A stretch of DNA of 64,000 bases from a virus (Duplodnaviria; Caudoviricetes). Made by a program: the position numbers and the translations under genes. The stretch is from positions 32,001 through 96,000 of IMG/VR virus record IMGVR_UViG_3300028048_000060; one strand, written 5' to 3'. Each line of letters begins with the position of its first letter. Position 1 is the stretch's first letter. Positions 31,989 through 59,022 of the stretch are shown piece by piece. A model generated the notes under the pieces. The model searched no databases. It had not been told where the DNA came from and was given only the letters and a program-made list of their open reading frames with translations.

Positions 31989-32277
31989 TACTGTTGACGA
32001 ACTTACCCGAGACAAAGAAACCTTAGTTCAGGTAAATGATATCTTAGTTAAGCCAGGATTTCACTTTCACAGTTTTGCCAAGGTTGTGAGAGTCTCAGAT
32101 AAGAGCGTTTCCTTAGTTAGCTTGGAAGCAGAAACTGAGAAATTAATTGAAAACGACCTGATTTGCACACTCAAAGTAAAGCCAGGAAACCCAATTGGAG
32201 AACCCTTTACAAAGAAAAACTTAGACGAGTATGACTTATACGACCCTTCAAGAGTTTATTATGATGTAATGTATTAA
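31972..32277 (+). CDS. Hypothetical protein
   Basis: Overlapping, translationally coupled ORF. Confidence 0.6.
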   Translation: MPAVFNTVDELTRDKETLVQVNDILVKPGFHFHSFAKVVRVSDKSVSLVSLEAETEKLIENDLICTLKVKPGNPIGEPFTKKNLDEYDLYDPSRVYYDVMY

Positions 32278-50801: not shown

Positions 50802-51700
50802 TGATTGTTTTTACACATAATGACTTAGATGCGGTTGGATGTGAATTATGTCTTAGACACAGTAACTTAAAGATAGACAAAGTGTTCTATGAAGACTACG
50901 TTACAATGAAGGACACTGTTCGAGATATTATCACATACGGGGCTAAGAACAACATAGACACTGTGTTCATTTGTGACTTGAGTTTCTCAGAGAGACCTGA
51001 GTTGCTCCAAAATCTTCTAAACCACTTTAAGACTGTCATTCACTTAGACCACCACTCATATCCTGAGGACTTTAGTGTCAAAGTAAGAGATAACTGCATC
51101 TTAAAACAAATTATAGACCCTTCAAGATGTGGATGTAAGATTGTCTATGATGTTCTGAAACTGAATATTCCTTATCTTAATGCTGTTATTGAAGTAATAG
51201 ATAAGTTTGACCGATTTGTCACTGACAGTCCTTTATTTGAAAAATCAGTAAGTATGAACTCTTACTTTTGGAAGTATGGCTATCAGCATTTCTTAGAACA
51301 GTTTAAAGAAAAAATTCCAGTTTCTTATAATAAAGACATAGAAATATTAAATGAAGAGACTTTAAGAGAACTTGAAGAACAAACTAAGAAAGGACAGATT
51401 TTAAAATCAGACAAAGTGACTATCAAGTTTGGAGATATCCACTTTGTAGAAGCAGAAATAAATGCTTTTAATCAAGGGCAAAGAGGGTTTCTGTGTATTA
51501 CTCCAGGAAACATCAAGGTAAGACTCAACAACAAGATATTCTCTCAGGAAGAGGCAGAGAATCTTAGACTTAAAATTTTGGGTTCAGTTAATGGCCACCC
51601 TCATGCATTTGTAGATGTCTTTAAGAATGATAATCCTGAACTTACCTTTGGTGAAATCCAAAGAATTTGTAATATCATTAACTCTTATGAAGGACTTTAA
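50798..51700 (+). CDS. DHH-family phosphoesterase
   Basis: TH.DLD, ICDL, LDHH motifs. Confidence 0.85.
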   Translation: MMIVFTHNDLDAVGCELCLRHSNLKIDKVFYEDYVTMKDTVRDIITYGAKNNIDTVFICDLSFSERPELLQNLLNHFKTVIHLDHHSYPEDFSVKVRDNCILKQIIDPSRCGCKIVYDVLKLNIPYLNAVIEVIDKFDRFVTDSPLFEKSVSMNSYFWKYGYQHFLEQFKEKIPVSYNKDIEILNEETLRELEEQTKKGQILKSDKVTIKFGDIHFVEAEINAFNQGQRGFLCITPGNIKVRLNNKIFSQEEAENLRLKILGSVNGHPHAFVDVFKNDNPELTFGEIQRICNIINSYEGL

Positions 51701-51701
51701 T

Positions 51702-51959
51702 ATGCTTACATTAGGACAGTTACTTTATGACTTAAATGACTCATATACTCATTTTGATGTTTACGAGCAGGAAGATACCGAGAACGTAGAAGAAGTTCTT
51801 CCTTCTAAGAAGAAAATTCTTTCTAATGCTTCCCAAGACGAGATTGTAGAGTTCTCAAAGAACCATCTCTTAGATGAAGTCCTGTTAGCATATAATGACT
51901 TAGTTCACAGAAGTTCAGGAAACAAGATACATATAGTCTTAGCCAAGAAGTCAGAATAA
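51702..51959 (+). CDS. Hypothetical protein
   Basis: Start moved to MLTLGQ after AGGA. Confidence 0.55.
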   Translation: MLTLGQLLYDLNDSYTHFDVYEQEDTENVEEVLPSKKKILSNASQDEIVEFSKNHLLDEVLLAYNDLVHRSSGNKIHIVLAKKSE

Positions 51960-52061
51960 GAGACTTGAAATTTTGGATGTTTTATATTATAATAAATAAA
52001 ATGTTAAGAATGCTTTAGTCACAGAAGACTAAAGCATTTGAATTTTTAAGGAATATCAAAA

Positions 52062-53771
52062 TTGAAAGAAATATACAAAAAGAAAACATCAAGAGAACAT
52101 ATCTTAGAAAGACCAAATATGTATATTGGTGCTTCTAATGTAGTGGAAGTAGAAGATTATTGCTTAGTTAATGACAAGATTCAGAGAACTTCAGTTAAGT
52201 GTGTTCCAGGACTTTTAAAGATTATCAACGAGATTATAGACAACTCAGTTGACATTGCTATTAAGACTAACTTTGAAGGATGTAACTCAGTAAGTGTTAA
52301 AATCACAGATGATACTGTTGTTGTAGAAGACAATGGTCCAGGAATTCCAGTTTCTAAAAATCCTGAAGGAGAGTATATCCCATTTGTTTGTTGGGGATAT
52401 GCAATGTCAGGTTCTAACTTTGACAATGACGAGAACAGAACTCACTTAGGGATGAATGGTGTAGGAAGTTACTGTACGAATGTTTGGAGTACAGAATTTA
52501 CTGGTATTTCAGATGACTCTAAGAACAGATACACTGTTAAGTTTAAAAATAATGCTTTAGATTATAAGGAAACTGTTTCAGACTCAGTCTCTAAGGGCGT
52601 TACTGTTAAGTTTAAACCTGACCTTAAGCGCTTTGGAATTGAAAAGATAGACCAAACTCACAAAGACTTAGTCTATCAGAGACTGTTAAATCTCAGTATT
52701 AGCTTCCCTCTAATCCAGTTTAAGTTTAATAACAAAGCTATTAAGACTAAGAACTTTAAGTCTTATGTTAGCAGTTTTGCTGATGAAGGAAGTTTTGAGG
52801 TCTTTCAGAGTGATAATTTTAGCTTTGCTGTTATTCCAAGTCCTTCAGACGAGTTCCAACAGTTTAGTTATCTAAATGGTCTTAATATCAAAGATGGTGG
52901 AACTCACATTGATGTGATAGCCAACAACATTGTTAGTTTACTGAGAGACAGTCTTTCTAAGAAGTACAAGACTATTAAACCTGCTGATATTAAGAACAAG
53001 CTGATGGTAGTTGGTGTGTTTAAGAACTTTGCTAATCCTAAGTTCAACTCTCAGACCAAGGAAAAGCTGACTAACTCTGTTTCAGAAGTAAATCGGTACT
53101 TTGGTGATATCGACTATCAGAGTCTTTCAAAGAAAATTTTAAAGAACTCTAATATAATTAGTCCTATCATAGAAGTCTTTAAGATAAAGGAAGAACTTAA
53201 AAACAGACAGGAATTAAAGACTCTTAATAAAGCAAAGAAAATCAAAGACGAGCATTACTTACCTGCTTTAAAGGAAAGTAAATACATAATGGTCGTTGAG
53301 GGACTTTGCTTAGATGAAAATACTGAAGTTCTTACATCTGATTTTAGAAGCAAACAAATAAGAGACATAGACATTGGTGATACAATCATAGATTCTAACT
53401 TTAATCCAGTAACAGTTCTCAGTAAATCACACAAACTCACTAAGACACTTAGAGTAAATTTTAGAGATGGATATGTTATTTGTGGATTAGAGCATCCATT
53501 CTTTGTATATAATAAAGAAAGAAAAATATTTGAGTATGTTAAGGCTAAAGACTTAAATTCAAATTATTCTCTTGTTAGGTCTAAGATTAGAAATGATGCT
53601 AGATTCTCAGAAGTGCTTGATGTAGAAGAAAAACGTTTGTTTCTTGAAGAAACTTATGTAGATTTTACAGATGATGATTTCTTTTGTGTTATTAGAGACG
53701 GAAGAATTCAAAGAGTTAAAGGAACTGAGATAGTTAAAGGAGACTGTTTGATTTTACAATGTGTGAGTTAA
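52062..53771 (+). CDS. Topoisomerase II large subunit (gp39) N-terminal part fused to split intein N-fragment
   Basis: EHIL.RP.MYIG, EIIDNS.D, DNGPGIP, SGSNF, G.NGVG, F.SQTKE, VVEGL then CLDENTEV. Confidence 0.93.
   Translation: MKEIYKKKTSREHILERPNMYIGASNVVEVEDYCLVNDKIQRTSVKCVPGLLKIINEIIDNSVDIAIKTNFEGCNSVSVKITDDTVVVEDNGPGIPVSKNPEGEYIPFVCWGYAMSGSNFDNDENRTHLGMNGVGSYCTNVWSTEFTGISDDSKNRYTVKFKNNALDYKETVSDSVSKGVTVKFKPDLKRFGIEKIDQTHKDLVYQRLLNLSISFPLIQFKFNNKAIKTKNFKSYVSSFADEGSFEVFQSDNFSFAVIPSPSDEFQQFSYLNGLNIKDGGTHIDVIANNIVSLLRDSLSKKYKTIKPADIKNKLMVVGVFKNFANPKFNSQTKEKLTNSVSEVNRYFGDIDYQSLSKKILKNSNIISPIIEVFKIKEELKNRQELKTLNKAKKIKDEHYLPALKESKYIMVVEGLCLDENTEVLTSDFRSKQIRDIDIGDTIIDSNFNPVTVLSKSHKLTKTLRVNFRDGYVICGLEHPFFVYNKERKIFEYVKAKDLNSNYSLVRSKIRNDARFSEVLDVEEKRLFLEETYVDFTDDDFFCVIRDGRIQRVKGTEIVKGDCLILQCVS
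53307..53771 (+). other. Split intein N-fragment (154 aa)
   Basis: Block A CLDENTEV, I.DI..GD, block B CGLEHPF, VKAKDL. Confidence 0.9.
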
Positions 53772-55051
53772 AGATATTTGTAGGAGTCTTAACAGATGAA
53801 CTTCTAAAGAAATTCACCACTTTTCCAAAGGCCAGTTTGTTCTATCCATTCAAAGAACTTACTGGAATGAAGTGTAAAGACTGGTGTTTAGAAAGATTAC
53901 GAGACTTAGAGACTCCTAAATGTGCTTGGTGTGGGAAGATTGTTAAATTTGATACTGAGTATTGTATTGAAGAGAGAAATTTGTTTGTCATTGTTAAATT
54001 TATAGAGGAGCATATTTGCTTTGATACTAAGAACTGTCCAAGAAAAGGTCTTAATCCAAACTCAGTTGAATTTGTTTCAAAGGCTTATAATATAAGCGAA
54101 GAAGAAGCTAACAGAAGAATCTTAGAACGAAATAAATCTCCATTTTATAGGACAAATTATGCCTCAGATGAAGAATATAGTAATGCGCAAAAACGAAATG
54201 AACAATGGTATATAAACCAGTACGAAGATGGAAAGGAAAGATTTATCAAGAGAAACAAAGCCATTTCTGAAAGAGTTACAAAGGAAGGGATGATAAGAAT
54301 ATACGGAAAGGAAAAGGCAGAAGCGATTTGTAAAAGTAAAGCAACGTGTTGTAAAGAACACTTTATGAAAAAGTTTGGCGATTCTTGGAAAGAAGAATAT
54401 GAGAAACATCTTCGAAAAGTAGAACAAACAGAGGAATCATTTATTGCGCGATACGGTCCCGAACTTGGAAAAATAAAGTGGGAAGGCCATATAAAATTAG
54501 TGAAACAAATTCTGAAGAAAAGACTCGAAAATGAAACCTCTGAACAGAGAAGAAAACGATGTTGCTTTTCAAAGGAGTTCTTTAAAACAAGATATGGAAA
54601 TAATTGGAAAACCTACTATAAAGAATTTCAGAAGAAGATACAAGTAAAGGCAGGAAAAGCATCAAAACTTTCTTTAAAATATTTTAAACCTATTATTGAT
54701 TTTCTCGATAAGAATCATTTAAAATATTATATAGGTGTAGATGGAAATAAGGAGTATTTCCTTTGGGATAGGAAAGCTAAGAAACTTCGATTATATGACC
54801 TTTGTATCTTAGATATAAAGACTATAATTGAATTTCATGGCTCTCTATATCATTATAACAAAGATAACCTTTTAGAAAATCCTTTTGGTTTTTCATTAAA
54901 TGAAAGAAAAGAAAAAGACGAACAAAAGGAAAGATTAGCGAAAGCAAATGGATTTGACTACTACGTTATATTTGACACAGATGATAGGACAGAGATGGCT
55001 GAAAAGTTAATCAAAATAATTCAGGAAAAAATAAATGCAAGAACTAACTAA
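53759..55051 (+). CDS. Vsr/DUF559-like homing endonuclease inserted between intein halves
   Basis: YG...G..K repeats; YD...IIEFHG..YH...KD..K..LA..NG.....I. Confidence 0.8.
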   Translation: MCELKIFVGVLTDELLKKFTTFPKASLFYPFKELTGMKCKDWCLERLRDLETPKCAWCGKIVKFDTEYCIEERNLFVIVKFIEEHICFDTKNCPRKGLNPNSVEFVSKAYNISEEEANRRILERNKSPFYRTNYASDEEYSNAQKRNEQWYINQYEDGKERFIKRNKAISERVTKEGMIRIYGKEKAEAICKSKATCCKEHFMKKFGDSWKEEYEKHLRKVEQTEESFIARYGPELGKIKWEGHIKLVKQILKKRLENETSEQRRKRCCFSKEFFKTRYGNNWKTYYKEFQKKIQVKAGKASKLSLKYFKPIIDFLDKNHLKYYIGVDGNKEYFLWDRKAKKLRLYDLCILDIKTIIEFHGSLYHYNKDNLLENPFGFSLNERKEKDEQKERLAKANGFDYYVIFDTDDRTEMAEKLIKIIQEKINARTN

Positions 55052-55466
55052 AGAACAGGAACTTAATTTTGAATTAGTTGATATAGAGTCAGTTGAAGAT
55101 AATGGATATGCTAACACTTTTGATATCTCTGTAACTGGGAAACATGATTTTATCTTAGGAAATGGAATTATCACACATAATTCTGCTCTTGCAGGGTTAA
55201 CACCTTCTCTAGGAAGAGAACAGTGTGCATATTATTGTCTAAGAGGAAAACCACTGAACGTTTGGAATGCGTCTCAGTCAAAGTTCACTTCTAATAAAGA
55301 ATTAAGTACTTTATATAAAATTGTAAAGAGTCTTGAAGAAGAAGAACCTATGGAAGATGGTGATTTCTATAAAATTGAAGTTAATGGAAAAGAAATGATT
55401 GTAAATGAAAATGACGAGATTAAGGTAGATGGGAAGTGGGTGAGTGTTAAGGAGTTTATTGGTTGA
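55035..55466 (+). CDS. Split intein C-fragment (49 aa, ends HN) fused to topoisomerase II TOPRIM middle part
   Basis: TFDISV...H.FIL.NGIITHN|SALAG...LRGKPLNV...N.EL. Confidence 0.92.
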   Translation: MQELTKEQELNFELVDIESVEDNGYANTFDISVTGKHDFILGNGIITHNSALAGLTPSLGREQCAYYCLRGKPLNVWNASQSKFTSNKELSTLYKIVKSLEEEEPMEDGDFYKIEVNGKEMIVNENDEIKVDGKWVSVKEFIG

Positions 55467-56410
55467 TTCATTTTGTTTACAGACTAACATATTTGGGAGA
55501 GACGAGTCCCAAATATTATATAGGGAAGCACTCTGGTGATATTGGTGATTTAGGGACAAAATATTTCACAAGTTCAAAGATTGTTAGGGAAATGTTTAAA
55601 AAAGACCCTAAATCCTTTAAGACTAAAATCATAAAGGTGTTTGACACTTGCACTCAGGCACTCGCATTCGAAAGTAAGATTTTAAGAAGAGTGGATGCTT
55701 GCAGAAATAAACTATTTTTTAATCAGTCTAATTATTCATATTATACTAAAGACAGAACATCTTTAGTTACTGTCTTTGACAATATTCTCCAGTGTAAGAG
55801 GTCTATTCCATGTGATGAATTTTATGCGAATAGAGAACGATATATCTCTGACCATGATGGACTTACAATTTTTAAAGACTCAGATGGAAATATAATCAGG
55901 TGTAGTAAAAGCTTCGCTTCTGAACATAATCTTGTTGGAGTTAATAAAGGTGTTGTCTTTGCTTTGAATGACTCAGGTAAGTATGTTAGACTTACACAGG
56001 ATGAATACCACAGTAATAAAGATAAATTTAAAGTTGGCACAACAGGAAATGTGATTTGTAAAGATAAGGTTACGGGAGAAACAAAAAGAGTCTCAAAGGA
56101 AGAATTTGACTCTAACCCAAACCTTAAAGGTGTTTATGACAAATACCAGTTTAAAATTTGCCCTCTATGTAACAAACAGATTTCAGTCCAAAATTATGAC
56201 AGGCACATAAACAGACATAAAACACTGATTTTATGGGTAACTGATGGAAAAGATACTTGGAAATGTACTGAAGAAAAATATTTATTGAAATATAAAGACA
56301 AATTTAATATAATTCAAAAGAATAAGGATAATACCATTGGATACATAGATGGCAAACCTTATAACATCAGATTCGTTGGAAGAATTAGAAAAAATTTTTA
56401 TTTGGAGTAA
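55463..56410 (+). CDS. GIY-YIG-like free-standing homing endonuclease
   Basis: FVY...YYIG.H, YFTSS, E..IL, FFN; repeated C-terminal modules and C2H2-like CPLC...H...H. Confidence 0.75.
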   Translation: MIHFVYRLTYLGETSPKYYIGKHSGDIGDLGTKYFTSSKIVREMFKKDPKSFKTKIIKVFDTCTQALAFESKILRRVDACRNKLFFNQSNYSYYTKDRTSLVTVFDNILQCKRSIPCDEFYANRERYISDHDGLTIFKDSDGNIIRCSKSFASEHNLVGVNKGVVFALNDSGKYVRLTQDEYHSNKDKFKVGTTGNVICKDKVTGETKRVSKEEFDSNPNLKGVYDKYQFKICPLCNKQISVQNYDRHINRHKTLILWVTDGKDTWKCTEEKYLLKYKDKFNIIQKNKDNTIGYIDGKPYNIRFVGRIRKNFYLE

Positions 56411-56413
56411 GAT

Positions 56414-56964
56414 ATGAAAGAATTTAAGAAGGTCAAGTTAACCAAAGAACAATTAAAGGAATACAGAGAAAATCCTAATATCAGAAGACGTAAAATTCTC
56501 ACAGGAGGTTTTGAGAAGATTGTCTATGCCTCCGACCAGGACTTAGACTAGCCCTTTGGGGCTAGTATATTTTTTAAGGAAAATTAGACGGATTCCACAT
56601 TCGCGCATTGCTCTCAGGATTTATTAACAAATACTTACCTGAGTACAAGGAAAGAACTGGGATGCTTGAAACCCCTATCATAGGATTTTTAAAGGCGCAA
56701 AAGCTTCAGAGATGGAGTTATGACTTAGATGATGAGTCTAAGACTAAACCTGGAGAAGTTCCATTCTATTACAAGGGATTAGGTTCCTGGGAGAAAGAAG
56801 ACCTCAAGAAGGTTGTAAAGACAGATGGTTTAGAAAAGATGATTAAGATGCTTGATTTTAATTCTGAAGATGCATATAATTCATTAGAAGAGTGGTTGGG
56901 AGATGACTCTGAACCGCGAAAGAAACATATCTTAGAAAACGACTTTAACATCGCTGATGTATAA
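56414..56964 (+). CDS. Topoisomerase II small subunit (gp60-like), read via 41-nt translational bypass (56549-56589); predicted 169 aa
   Basis: ORF1 ends ASDQDLD-TAG; resuming after matched GAC gives GFHIRALL...YYKGLGSW...RK. Confidence 0.85.
56547..56589 (+). promoter_or_regulatory. Bypass signals: take-off hairpin, stop codon, SD-like AAGGA, landing GAC
   Basis: ACTAGCCC-TTTG-GGGCTAGT; TTAGAC repeated at 56543 and 56584. Confidence 0.85.
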
Positions 56965-56973
56965 GGAACACTA

Positions 56974-57480
56974 GTGAGAAAATTCACAGAACAAGAAAGG
57001 GAGAAGTTAAAATCCCTTATATCTAACTATATAGAGTTAAGAAATTTGTCTTTTGGAGAAAATCATAGTCAGGCTATTACACAGGGTCACCAAAAAGCAA
57101 AGGCTATCAAAGACCTTTTAAGTAAAAACAACATAGATCCATCCTGGATGGGAATGATAAAGAAAAACTCAAATGAAGATGAAATTATCTCCAAACTGTT
57201 CGAAGATCATCCAGAAGTCAAAAGTGATAAAAATAAAGAAATATGTCTTCTCTATATAAAGATAAAGAAAATGAGTAAAGACGTTGATGCGAGAAAAGAG
57301 AAGACTAAGAGTTCTATCTTAAAGAAAATAGCTAAAATCGACCCTATGCTATCAGCTTATGTTTTGTATAAAGTTAAGATTTTCCAAGCACGTAAAATAC
57401 TGGAAAAGAGTCTAATGAATGAAACATTAGACTCATTAGAACAGAGATACAAAGAGATTTTAAAGGATTTTGATTTATGA
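56974..57480 (+). CDS. Hypothetical basic helical protein
   Basis: ORF between gp60-like and gp52-like genes. Confidence 0.65.
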   Translation: MRKFTEQEREKLKSLISNYIELRNLSFGENHSQAITQGHQKAKAIKDLLSKNNIDPSWMGMIKKNSNEDEIISKLFEDHPEVKSDKNKEICLLYIKIKKMSKDVDARKEKTKSSILKKIAKIDPMLSAYVLYKVKIFQARKILEKSLMNETLDSLEQRYKEILKDFDL

Positions 57481-58820
57481 CAGATTCGGTTAAGATTGAA
57501 GAATTTTTAAATACAAGATTGTCTAATTATGCTAGCTATGATAATCTTAGAAAGATTGGAAGTTACATTGATGGACTTAAAAATGCTAGTAGAAAAGTTC
57601 TTTATACTATCCATGAGAAGAACATCAAAGACACAGAAAAGGTCTCGAGATTAGCTTCTAAGTGTTCTGAGTTCTCTGATTATCTCCATGGAGATGGGTT
57701 ATGGAGAGTTATAGTTACTCTAGGACAGGACTTTGCAGGGACCAATAACATTCCTTTGATTCAGAAGTTTGGTGCATTTGGATGTCGTTCAAACAACGAA
57801 CCTGGTGCCCCAAGATACATCCATGCTTCAGGTTCTAAGATGTTCTTTAGTCTGTTTAATTATAAAGATGATGATATTTTAGTAAAACAGACATTTGAAG
57901 GAACTACTATAGAACCAAGATTCTATGTTCCTACTATCCCTATTATCTTAGTTAATGGGAGTGAAGGAGTTTCTTCTGGATTTGCTCAGAAAATCTTAGC
58001 GAGAAATCCTAAGAATATCATTAAGTACATTCAGAACTTCCTTAATAAAAAGCCTACTAGAAAAGACTGGTTAAATCCATTTTATAATGGATATAATGGC
58101 GACATTATCAGAGACCCTAACTTCCCTGACGACCCAAAGAAATGGTTAGTAAATGGAAAGGTAGAAAAGGTTAAGTCTAATGTATACAGAATTAAAGAAA
58201 TTCCATTTACTTATGATTTAAACTCCTACCTGAAAGTCTTAGATTCCTTGGAAGAGTCAAAGACAATTTTGAGTTATTCAGATATGTCAGATGGAGACTG
58301 TAAGTTAGAGTTTGAAGTAAAGGTTCCAAAGGATTTTAAACACGAAGATGTTTTAAAGACGTTAAAGTTACAAAAGCCTATTACTGAGAACTATACTTGT
58401 ATAGATGAAAATAACAAAATCAGGATTTTCGAAGACTCAGAAGAAATAATCAAGTCTTTTATAGATATAAAGCTAAAATTTATTCAAAAGAGAAAAGAGT
58501 TTCTGGAAAAAACCCTTCAGGGTGAATTAGACATTTTGAACTCTAAGATTTTGTTTATTACTATGGTTATAGATAAGAAACTAAAGATAAACAATATCCC
58601 TAAAGAACAGGTTATTGAAGCATTAAGCAAAGTAAAGAAAATTGTAAAAGTCCAAGACAGTTATGATTATCTTTTAAAGATGCCTATCTATTCTCTGACA
58701 AAAGAGAAAGTTGAAGACTTAAAGAATCAGGCATTATCAAAGAGTTCAGAACTTGAGGAATTAAAGGAAATGTCTAAAGAGCAAATATGGTTAAAAGATT
58801 TAGAGGAGATAAAGTTGTAA
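57477..58820 (+). CDS. Topoisomerase II medium subunit, gp52-like
   Basis: DGLK...RK, YLHG, G.FG.R, APRYI catalytic Tyr, P.ILVNG.EG...GF. Confidence 0.95.
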   Translation: MTDSVKIEEFLNTRLSNYASYDNLRKIGSYIDGLKNASRKVLYTIHEKNIKDTEKVSRLASKCSEFSDYLHGDGLWRVIVTLGQDFAGTNNIPLIQKFGAFGCRSNNEPGAPRYIHASGSKMFFSLFNYKDDDILVKQTFEGTTIEPRFYVPTIPIILVNGSEGVSSGFAQKILARNPKNIIKYIQNFLNKKPTRKDWLNPFYNGYNGDIIRDPNFPDDPKKWLVNGKVEKVKSNVYRIKEIPFTYDLNSYLKVLDSLEESKTILSYSDMSDGDCKLEFEVKVPKDFKHEDVLKTLKLQKPITENYTCIDENNKIRIFEDSEEIIKSFIDIKLKFIQKRKEFLEKTLQGELDILNSKILFITMVIDKKLKINNIPKEQVIEALSKVKKIVKVQDSYDYLLKMPIYSLTKEKVEDLKNQALSKSSELEELKEMSKEQIWLKDLEEIKL

Positions 58821-58821
58821 G

Positions 58822-59022
58822 ATGTTAGGATTTAGTATCTATGTTCTAAGATGGATTGTGAGTGGGATTGTAATGATTCCTATTATGCAGTTCTTTGAAC
58901 CTTATTTGTCTCTTTGGGCTAACCTCTTAGTAACTCAGATTATAGGTTCGTTTATATTCTTCTTTATAGACAAAACAATATTTAAGCATATCAACGCTAT
59001 GACACCTTCATCTGATTCTTAG
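58822..59022 (+). CDS. Small two-transmembrane protein (GtrA-like pattern)
   Basis: Y.LRW..S and IG..IFF.ID..IF. Confidence 0.6.
   Translation: MLGFSIYVLRWIVSGIVMIPIMQFFEPYLSLWANLLVTQIIGSFIFFFIDKTIFKHINAMTPSSDS

Follow-up and report, generated by a model that had tools for sequence, protein, structure and literature searches.

A predicted gene 60-type translational bypass, already recognized in 2022, in a split topoisomerase II gene of a rumen phage

Known bypass systems and earlier description of the locus

To our knowledge, efficient programmed bypassing was for a long time recognized in a single gene. In that gene, gene 60 of phage T4, ribosomes reportedly bypass 50 nt of the mRNA. Here, we examined a window of 64,000 nucleotides (positions 32,001 to 96,000 of virus record IMGVR_UViG_3300028048_000060; window features are on its plus strand), which derives from a T4-like phage of the bovine rumen and holds the T4-type topoisomerase II genes in pieces. 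The locus concerns the same gene and the same DxDxDG motif as T4 gene 60, but the two differ in detail: the codon is GAC (Asp), one codon upstream of GGA (Gly46) in T4; the gap is 41 nt instead of 50 nt; the stem tip is CCC-UUUG-GGG, compared with CC-UUCG-GG; the putative mini-SD reads GGA, where T4 has GAG; the endonuclease belongs to the GIY-YIG type, whereas T4 has the HNH enzyme MobA; and ORF1 contains an extra split intein, unlike T4. Furthermore, the T4 bypass has been proven by experiment, whereas the present locus is known from sequence alone. A preliminary description of this DNA had stated that it departs from T4 in the codon used (Asp), in the length of the gap, and in where take-off occurs, which was accurate (GAC, 41 nt, one codon upstream), and the T4 nascent peptide given there, KKYKLQNNVRRSIK, matches the T4 entry in File S3 of Manning & Atkins 2022 (bioRxiv 10.1101/2022.08.31.505936).

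Among isolate phages, the closest split ORF2 is that of Campylobacter Firehammervirus CP21_101, which shares 46% identity in the post-gap part and has a homologous N-terminal extension; it is gap-free, without an adjacent endonuclease, and its ORF2 has been relocated in the genome. The mitochondrial "byp" elements of Magnusiomyces reportedly resemble the present locus in that matched take-off and landing codons surround a short, structured, untranslated insert. However, they are said to be unrelated in sequence, to occur many times per genome in many genes, and to involve no nascent-peptide or SD component, and they have no homology to the cassette described here.

The locus itself is not new. 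Its exact sequence was already predicted to be a bypass in a preprint that reports dozens of gene 60-type cassettes from phage genomes and metagenomes (Manning & Atkins 2022), and the novelty that the preliminary description had implied therefore does not hold. Table S2 of the preprint gives the source of MGS5 as bovine rumen, Lethbridge (Ga0256405_10000342 / IMGVR_UViG_3300028048_000060), and the entry clx9_nMG9 in its File S3 is the same DNA, aligned with the T4 cassette. The MGS5 ORF2 protein is identical to the joined product obtained here, and the ORF2 DNA (ATG through gap), the ORF1 protein, and the GIY-YIG protein ("MGS5_endo") match letter for letter in all stretches compared. We found no difference between MGS5/nMG9 and our locus, which represent the same record or an identical one; Manning & Atkins reached the same reading of the same sequence independently. 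According to the preprint, GAC is both take-off and landing codon in most metagenomic cassettes, and clades 9 and 10 have an extra C:G pair, often a UUUG loop, and a GIY-YIG enzyme in place of MobA. Natural variants of this kind, in which tRNA-Asp would take the place of tRNA-Gly, the gap measures 41 nt, and the loop reads UUUG, can reveal what the T4 mechanism cannot do without, and they are ready-made test substrates; the value of the Asp-codon variants was already claimed for this sequence in the same preprint. Our literature search returned neither a peer-reviewed version of the preprint nor a bench test of the Asp-tRNA variants.

Anatomy of ORF2 and the surrounding topoisomerase II locus

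The first part of ORF2 (56414–56548) consists of 45 codons, starts at an ATG (56414) with GGAG 6 nt 5' of it, and encodes an N-terminal extension that includes the presumed nascent-peptide signal KEYRENPNIRRRK and leads into the rebuilt SDQDLD, so that its translation ends in ...YASDQDLD*. The sequence places the take-off codon GAC (Asp45) at 56546–56548 and directly after it a UAG stop (56549–56551), which would occupy the A site at take-off. TAG terminates 10 of the 49 long ORFs in the window, in which all three stops end long ORFs, indicating that the TAG at 56549–51 is a true stop. The take-off stem-loop (56547–56566; ACTAGCCC/TTTG/GGGCTAGT) comprises 8 bp and a UUUG loop, with a stem tip of CCC-UUUG-GGG, and takes in the stop together with 2 nt of the take-off codon. 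Folded alone, it reaches −14.6 kcal/mol (z = −4.3), which none of 200 shuffles equaled, and it occurs once in the window and once in the whole 154.7-kb virus record. Upstream of the take-off site, a 5' stem-loop gave no folding signal (z = −0.25); the region 3' of the landing site folded somewhat better than its shuffles (z = −2.25), from which we draw no inference.

[quoted passage not shown] The landing codon, read from the sequence, is a second GAC (56587–56589), and TTAGAC is accordingly present twice (56543–48 and 56584–89). Over its 41 nt, the gap contains neither GAC nor GAT apart from the landing codon; both codons thus call for the same tRNA, with no competing cognate codon between them. 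In the downstream frame, a TAA at 56575–77 leaves only 12 nt open ahead of the Gly codon. From GGA 56590, the resumed ORF2 (56590–56964; 124 codons plus TAA at 56962–64) reads GFHIRALLSGF... and ends in ...NIADV, covering the end of the TOPRIM domain and the tail domain. The joined parts give a 169-aa protein in which DQDLD|GFHI restores the TOPRIM DxDxDG motif; all TOPRIM motifs are intact. The insert therefore lies at DxDxD|G of ORF2 of a split Topo II large subunit, to within one codon. Each element listed in the preliminary description (the 45-codon ORF, TAG 56549–51, the hairpin at 56547–66, AAGGA, the TTAGAC repeat, and GGA 56590) was found in its place.

Upstream, ORF1 (52062–55466) is a "fractured gene" in which the N- and C-intein lie on separate ORFs in the same frame, and the intein cut falls in the TOPRIM EGxSA motif. 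ORF1a (52062–53771), the large-subunit ORF with Pfam matches to HATPase_c, DNA_gyraseB, and Intein_splicing, consists of a 415-aa N-extein (GyrB-like ATPase and transducer, up to TOPRIM EG-L) and a 154-aa N-intein that begins at the Cys codon 53307 (junction VVEGL|CLDEN). ORF1b (55035–55466) matches Pfam Intein_splicing at positions 116–155 and phrog_543 at positions 445–496, and runs from a 49-aa C-intein ending in THN through Ser+1 at 55182 and the TOPRIM segment SALAG...LRGKPLN to a C-terminal extension (CTE). This CTE was probably added by the splitting cassette, and tails like it were found in relatives. Cys1, a C-intein HN with a +1 nucleophile, and an endonuclease gene between the halves all agree with a fractured gene, and splicing is predicted. 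Fractured genes with a naturally split intein have reportedly been described before. The split-intein ORF1 of this locus was noted in Table S2 of Manning & Atkins 2022.

A free-standing endonuclease ORF of 430 aa (53759–55051) lies in another frame and overlaps both intein-half ORFs; its only match was phrog_22677, of function not known, and a note in the same Table S2 calls it VSR-like. The ORF beside ORF2 (55463–56410, 315 aa) encodes a GIY-YIG (Seg-like) homing endonuclease, a type assigned by a weak match to Pfam SegE_GIY-YIG (E = 0.003, below the curated cut-off). Both an endonuclease beside ORF2 and the CTE are thus present, the enzyme being GIY-YIG by this weak match and not MobA. A strong promoter-like site (TTGAAA-17-TATAAT, 56285–56313) is embedded in the 3'-terminal part of the GIY-YIG gene, roughly 100 nt ahead of ORF2. 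Downstream of ORF2, an ORF of 168 aa (56974–57480) without a Pfam or PHROG match precedes the intact gene for a gp52-like topoisomerase II subunit (GyrA/ParC-type, 57477–58820; Pfam DNA_topoisoIV, E = 1.7e-75), which is the predicted partner of the rebuilt large subunit. The large subunit thus appears to depend on three processes at once, namely trans-splicing, docking of the tails, and hopping.

Homologous proteins and cassettes at the same site

The two ORF2 parts abut at 47|48 of one 172-position profile, phrog_7229, the first matching positions 4–47 and the second positions 48–170; chance is thus no explanation. The rebuilt TOPRIM DxDxDGxHI motif (DQDLD-GFHIRALL) proposed in the preliminary description is borne out by the translations. 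At the join, Vibrio phage phiKT1024, whose protein is unsplit, has YATDQDLDGFHIRGLL, and the split, gap-free ORF2 of Campylobacter phage CP21 reads SDSDLDGIHIG. The post-gap part matches the T4 gp39–gp60 structures 8yo3 and 8ylu. The N-terminal extension is homologous to residues 1–46 of T4 gp60 in the alignment, with a conserved Tyr and basic residues, and a role at the ribosome is suggested for it by T4. Neither ORF2 part matched in the Pfam search. Rfam gave no match at E <= 1 over 51500–59000, blastn of 56300–57000 against phage records gave none, and a scan of IMG/VR for close relatives with a single protein found none.

Further relatives came from two scans. A DNA pattern (GACT..CCC..GGG..GACGG) was searched in metagenome and IMG/VR contigs; its letters are fixed, and conservation among its matches is therefore partly by construction. 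A protein-based scan of IMG/VR, which like the preprint is free of this bias, gave 26 relatives, comprising 19 unsplit proteins contiguous at DQDLD|G, 2 split proteins with the extension but no gap, and 5 cassette carriers. In the DNA scan, 13 loci held a cassette within the expected protein context; 6 further matches (L041, L047, L048, L049, L052, and L053 in our locus labels) arose by chance and were discarded. A shorter pattern, restricted to the hairpin, hit 37 loci in IMG/VR, all unrelated hairpins and none in a topoisomerase. In total, 11 distinct cassettes were found at this site, ten besides that of the window.

[quoted passage not shown] Gap lengths range from 37 to 45 nt and include 0, 1, and 2 mod 3, but the protein always resumes with G-[FI]-H-I. 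In none of the 11 cassettes does an ATG, GTG, or TTG follow the last stop of the downstream frame ahead of the Gly codon. The first in-frame start after landing is not conserved: just 3 of 11 have TTG at codon 6, and in two cassettes the first 30 codons contain no start. The post-gap part evolves with a dN/dS of 0.06–0.11, at synonymous sites near saturation, indicating that it is translated, and the N-terminal extension is constrained too. Like the anatomy and the homology, this selection pattern is a matter of observation.

The nearest cassette, L046, has the hairpin and mini-SD exactly as in the window; despite a synonymous divergence of pS 0.70, the hairpin and AAGGAAAAT are identical, whereas the spacer between them differs. 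Where UGA replaces UAG, the 3' arm reads UCA instead of CUA, which compensates on both stem pairs; one of these cassettes has a G-U pair, and stem pairing holds in 94% of cells, against 20–50% when the partner is slid. The UGA cassettes number four and may reflect one or two events, so this covariation represents few events. The preliminary description had looked to covariation of the hairpin among related topoisomerase genes, which is present in the form of these two compensated pairs. Gap lengths in three frames, the lack of a downstream start, purifying selection, and stem compensation argue that the two ORF2 parts are read as one protein.

Several relatives deserve mention in their own right. 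The UGA-stop cassettes L043:129-198 (AUXO010283040.1) and L057:7716-7779 (IMGVR_UViG_3300037249_002106) have gaps of 43 and 37 nt, and their contig names are absent from the supplement of Manning & Atkins 2022; the 37 nt of L057 is the shortest hairpin-bearing GAC-to-GAC gap here. A second phage of the same rumen sample (L045:1669-2657, Ga0256405_10000937) has a broken GIY-YIG endonuclease, in ORFs of 158 and 168 aa, and its 42-nt UGA cassette is intact. In L076:2860-3366 and L080:2860-3357, ORF2 is split and keeps the N-terminal extension, and DQDLDG is uninterrupted. The close relationship of L076 to the cassette carriers L054 and L044 suggests a recent gain or loss of the cassette in that lineage.

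In cassettes of the MGS2 type (L040:929-994 on the minus strand, L054:2601-2666, and L044:4647-4714), the upstream ORF ends in ...ATDQD. Compared with the gap-free L076 (2920–3040), they contain an insert of 33 or 35 nt, followed by GAT TTA GAC GG. This alignment suggests that the MGS2-type hop would go from GAC to GAU and restore DQDLDG, the sequence read by the MGS2-type protein in the preprint's own table (Manning & Atkins 2022). On this reading, the distance from GAGG to the landing codon would be the usual 6 nt, compared with 12 nt in the preprint text.

Proposed hop and alternative readings

The locus has every sequence hallmark of the T4 gene 60 bypass, at a site that is homologous to that of T4 and lies one codon upstream of Gly46. 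We consider a gene 60-type programmed bypass with peptidyl-tRNA-Asp, in a working cassette, to be the best explanation of the locus, with a probability of roughly 85%. The divergent natural bypass suggested in the preliminary description is thus favored by the hallmarks and by the comparative evidence alike, while the hop itself and its efficiency are inferred by homology to T4. Ribosomes would begin at ATG 56414 and first synthesize an N-terminal extension of 45 residues, in which the Tyr and the basic stretch may act within the exit tunnel. Once the P site holds GAC (Asp45) and the A site UAG, the CCC-UUUG-GGG hairpin would form in or at the A site and block release-factor action. Peptidyl-tRNA-Asp would then leave GAC, and the ribosome would slide over 41 nt without decoding until base pairing between the 16S anti-SD and the putative mini-SD GGA, which precedes the landing codon by 6 nt, brings the second GAC into the P site. 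There, the tRNA would re-pair at 56587–89 and decoding would restart at GGA 56590, yielding the 169-aa protein with an intact DxDxDG. The cassette probably arrived with a gene-splitting homing-endonuclease element, of the GIY-YIG type here and the HNH type (MobA) in T4. A Leu-to-Leu hop, which the TTAGAC repeat would also permit, gives the same protein but has nothing to trigger it.

Other forms of recoding were rejected. A +1 or −1 frameshift is incompatible with the TAA at 56575–77, which closes the downstream frame 27 nt after the TAG and leaves the frames without overlap, and relatives have gaps of 0 mod 3. Readthrough or reassignment of the TAG would continue in frame into the unrelated PFGASIFFKEN*, and TAG is in regular use as a stop in the window, as the long ORFs show. 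A self-splicing intron is not supported at 41 nt, and no catalytic core matched in Rfam (E <= 1). The gene could instead have been split once more, with the 45-aa peptide released at the UAG, the downstream part initiated separately through the AAGGA SD, and at least three pieces assembling non-covalently. The resemblance of AAGGA at 56576–80 to an SD, the TTG at 56608 that starts an ORF listed by the program, and the existing breaks elsewhere in this gene, for which tails and a split intein compensate, all favor this reading. Nevertheless, we regard it as very unlikely: neither this cassette nor the ten others offer a start codon between the TAA and the Gly codon, the TTG at codon 6 is missing from most cassettes and any early start from two, and initiation at 56608 would lose the conserved GFHIRA and cut DxDxD from its G, while the matched take-off and landing codons would be left unexplained.

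The cassette might also be a homing-endonuclease scar or an immunity device that disrupts a cleavage site, with ORF2 dead or dying, as the two homing endonucleases that crowd the locus might suggest; the T4 insert likewise belongs to a mobile mobA cassette (summarized in Manning & Atkins 2022). A dead gene is highly unlikely, however, given the post-gap dN/dS of 0.06–0.11 across lineages with saturated synonymous sites, the intact TOPRIM motifs, and the intact gp52-like partner. Removal or neutralization of the 41 nt in RNA, by splicing or processing, or a hairpin and U-run serving mainly as an intrinsic terminator or attenuator, appears extremely unlikely. The hairpin with ATATTTTTT (56547–56575) is the best terminator-like site in 51500–59000, but the U-run is missing in most relatives (L046, L045, L057, and L055), which retain the stem, stop, mini-SD, and landing codon, and a self-splicing intron needs far more than 41 nt; Rfam, too, gave no match. 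In T4, moreover, the insert reportedly remains in the mRNA, which speaks against removal here. Finally, the source is one metagenome assembly, and the 41 nt might be a sequencing or assembly artefact of the contig; the chance of this appears extremely small, as homologous inserts of the same architecture occur in at least ten other independent assemblies from different samples, the nearest of which, L046, has an identical hairpin and mini-SD.

Alongside the bypass that we favor, the terminator-like score of this copy stems from the hairpin followed by AUAUUUUUU, and hairpin and U-run together could lower the yield of full-length mRNA. Because the U-run is not conserved, termination would be at most an added, local role. 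That the take-off hairpin is also a partial Rho-independent terminator, so that a single stretch of 20 nt would control the topoisomerase tail at the level of transcription as well as translation, is improbable; if true, this would set subunit stoichiometry in a gene that relies for its reconstruction on three rescue mechanisms, namely split-intein trans-splicing, CTE/NTE docking, and hopping. With regard to the tRNA, no tRNA-Asp was found in the examined virus record, whose completeness is about 68%. The tRNAs that it does have, tRNA-Cys(GCA), tRNA-Gly(UCC), and tRNA-Gln(UUG), are clustered at its end (154124–154366), outside the window.
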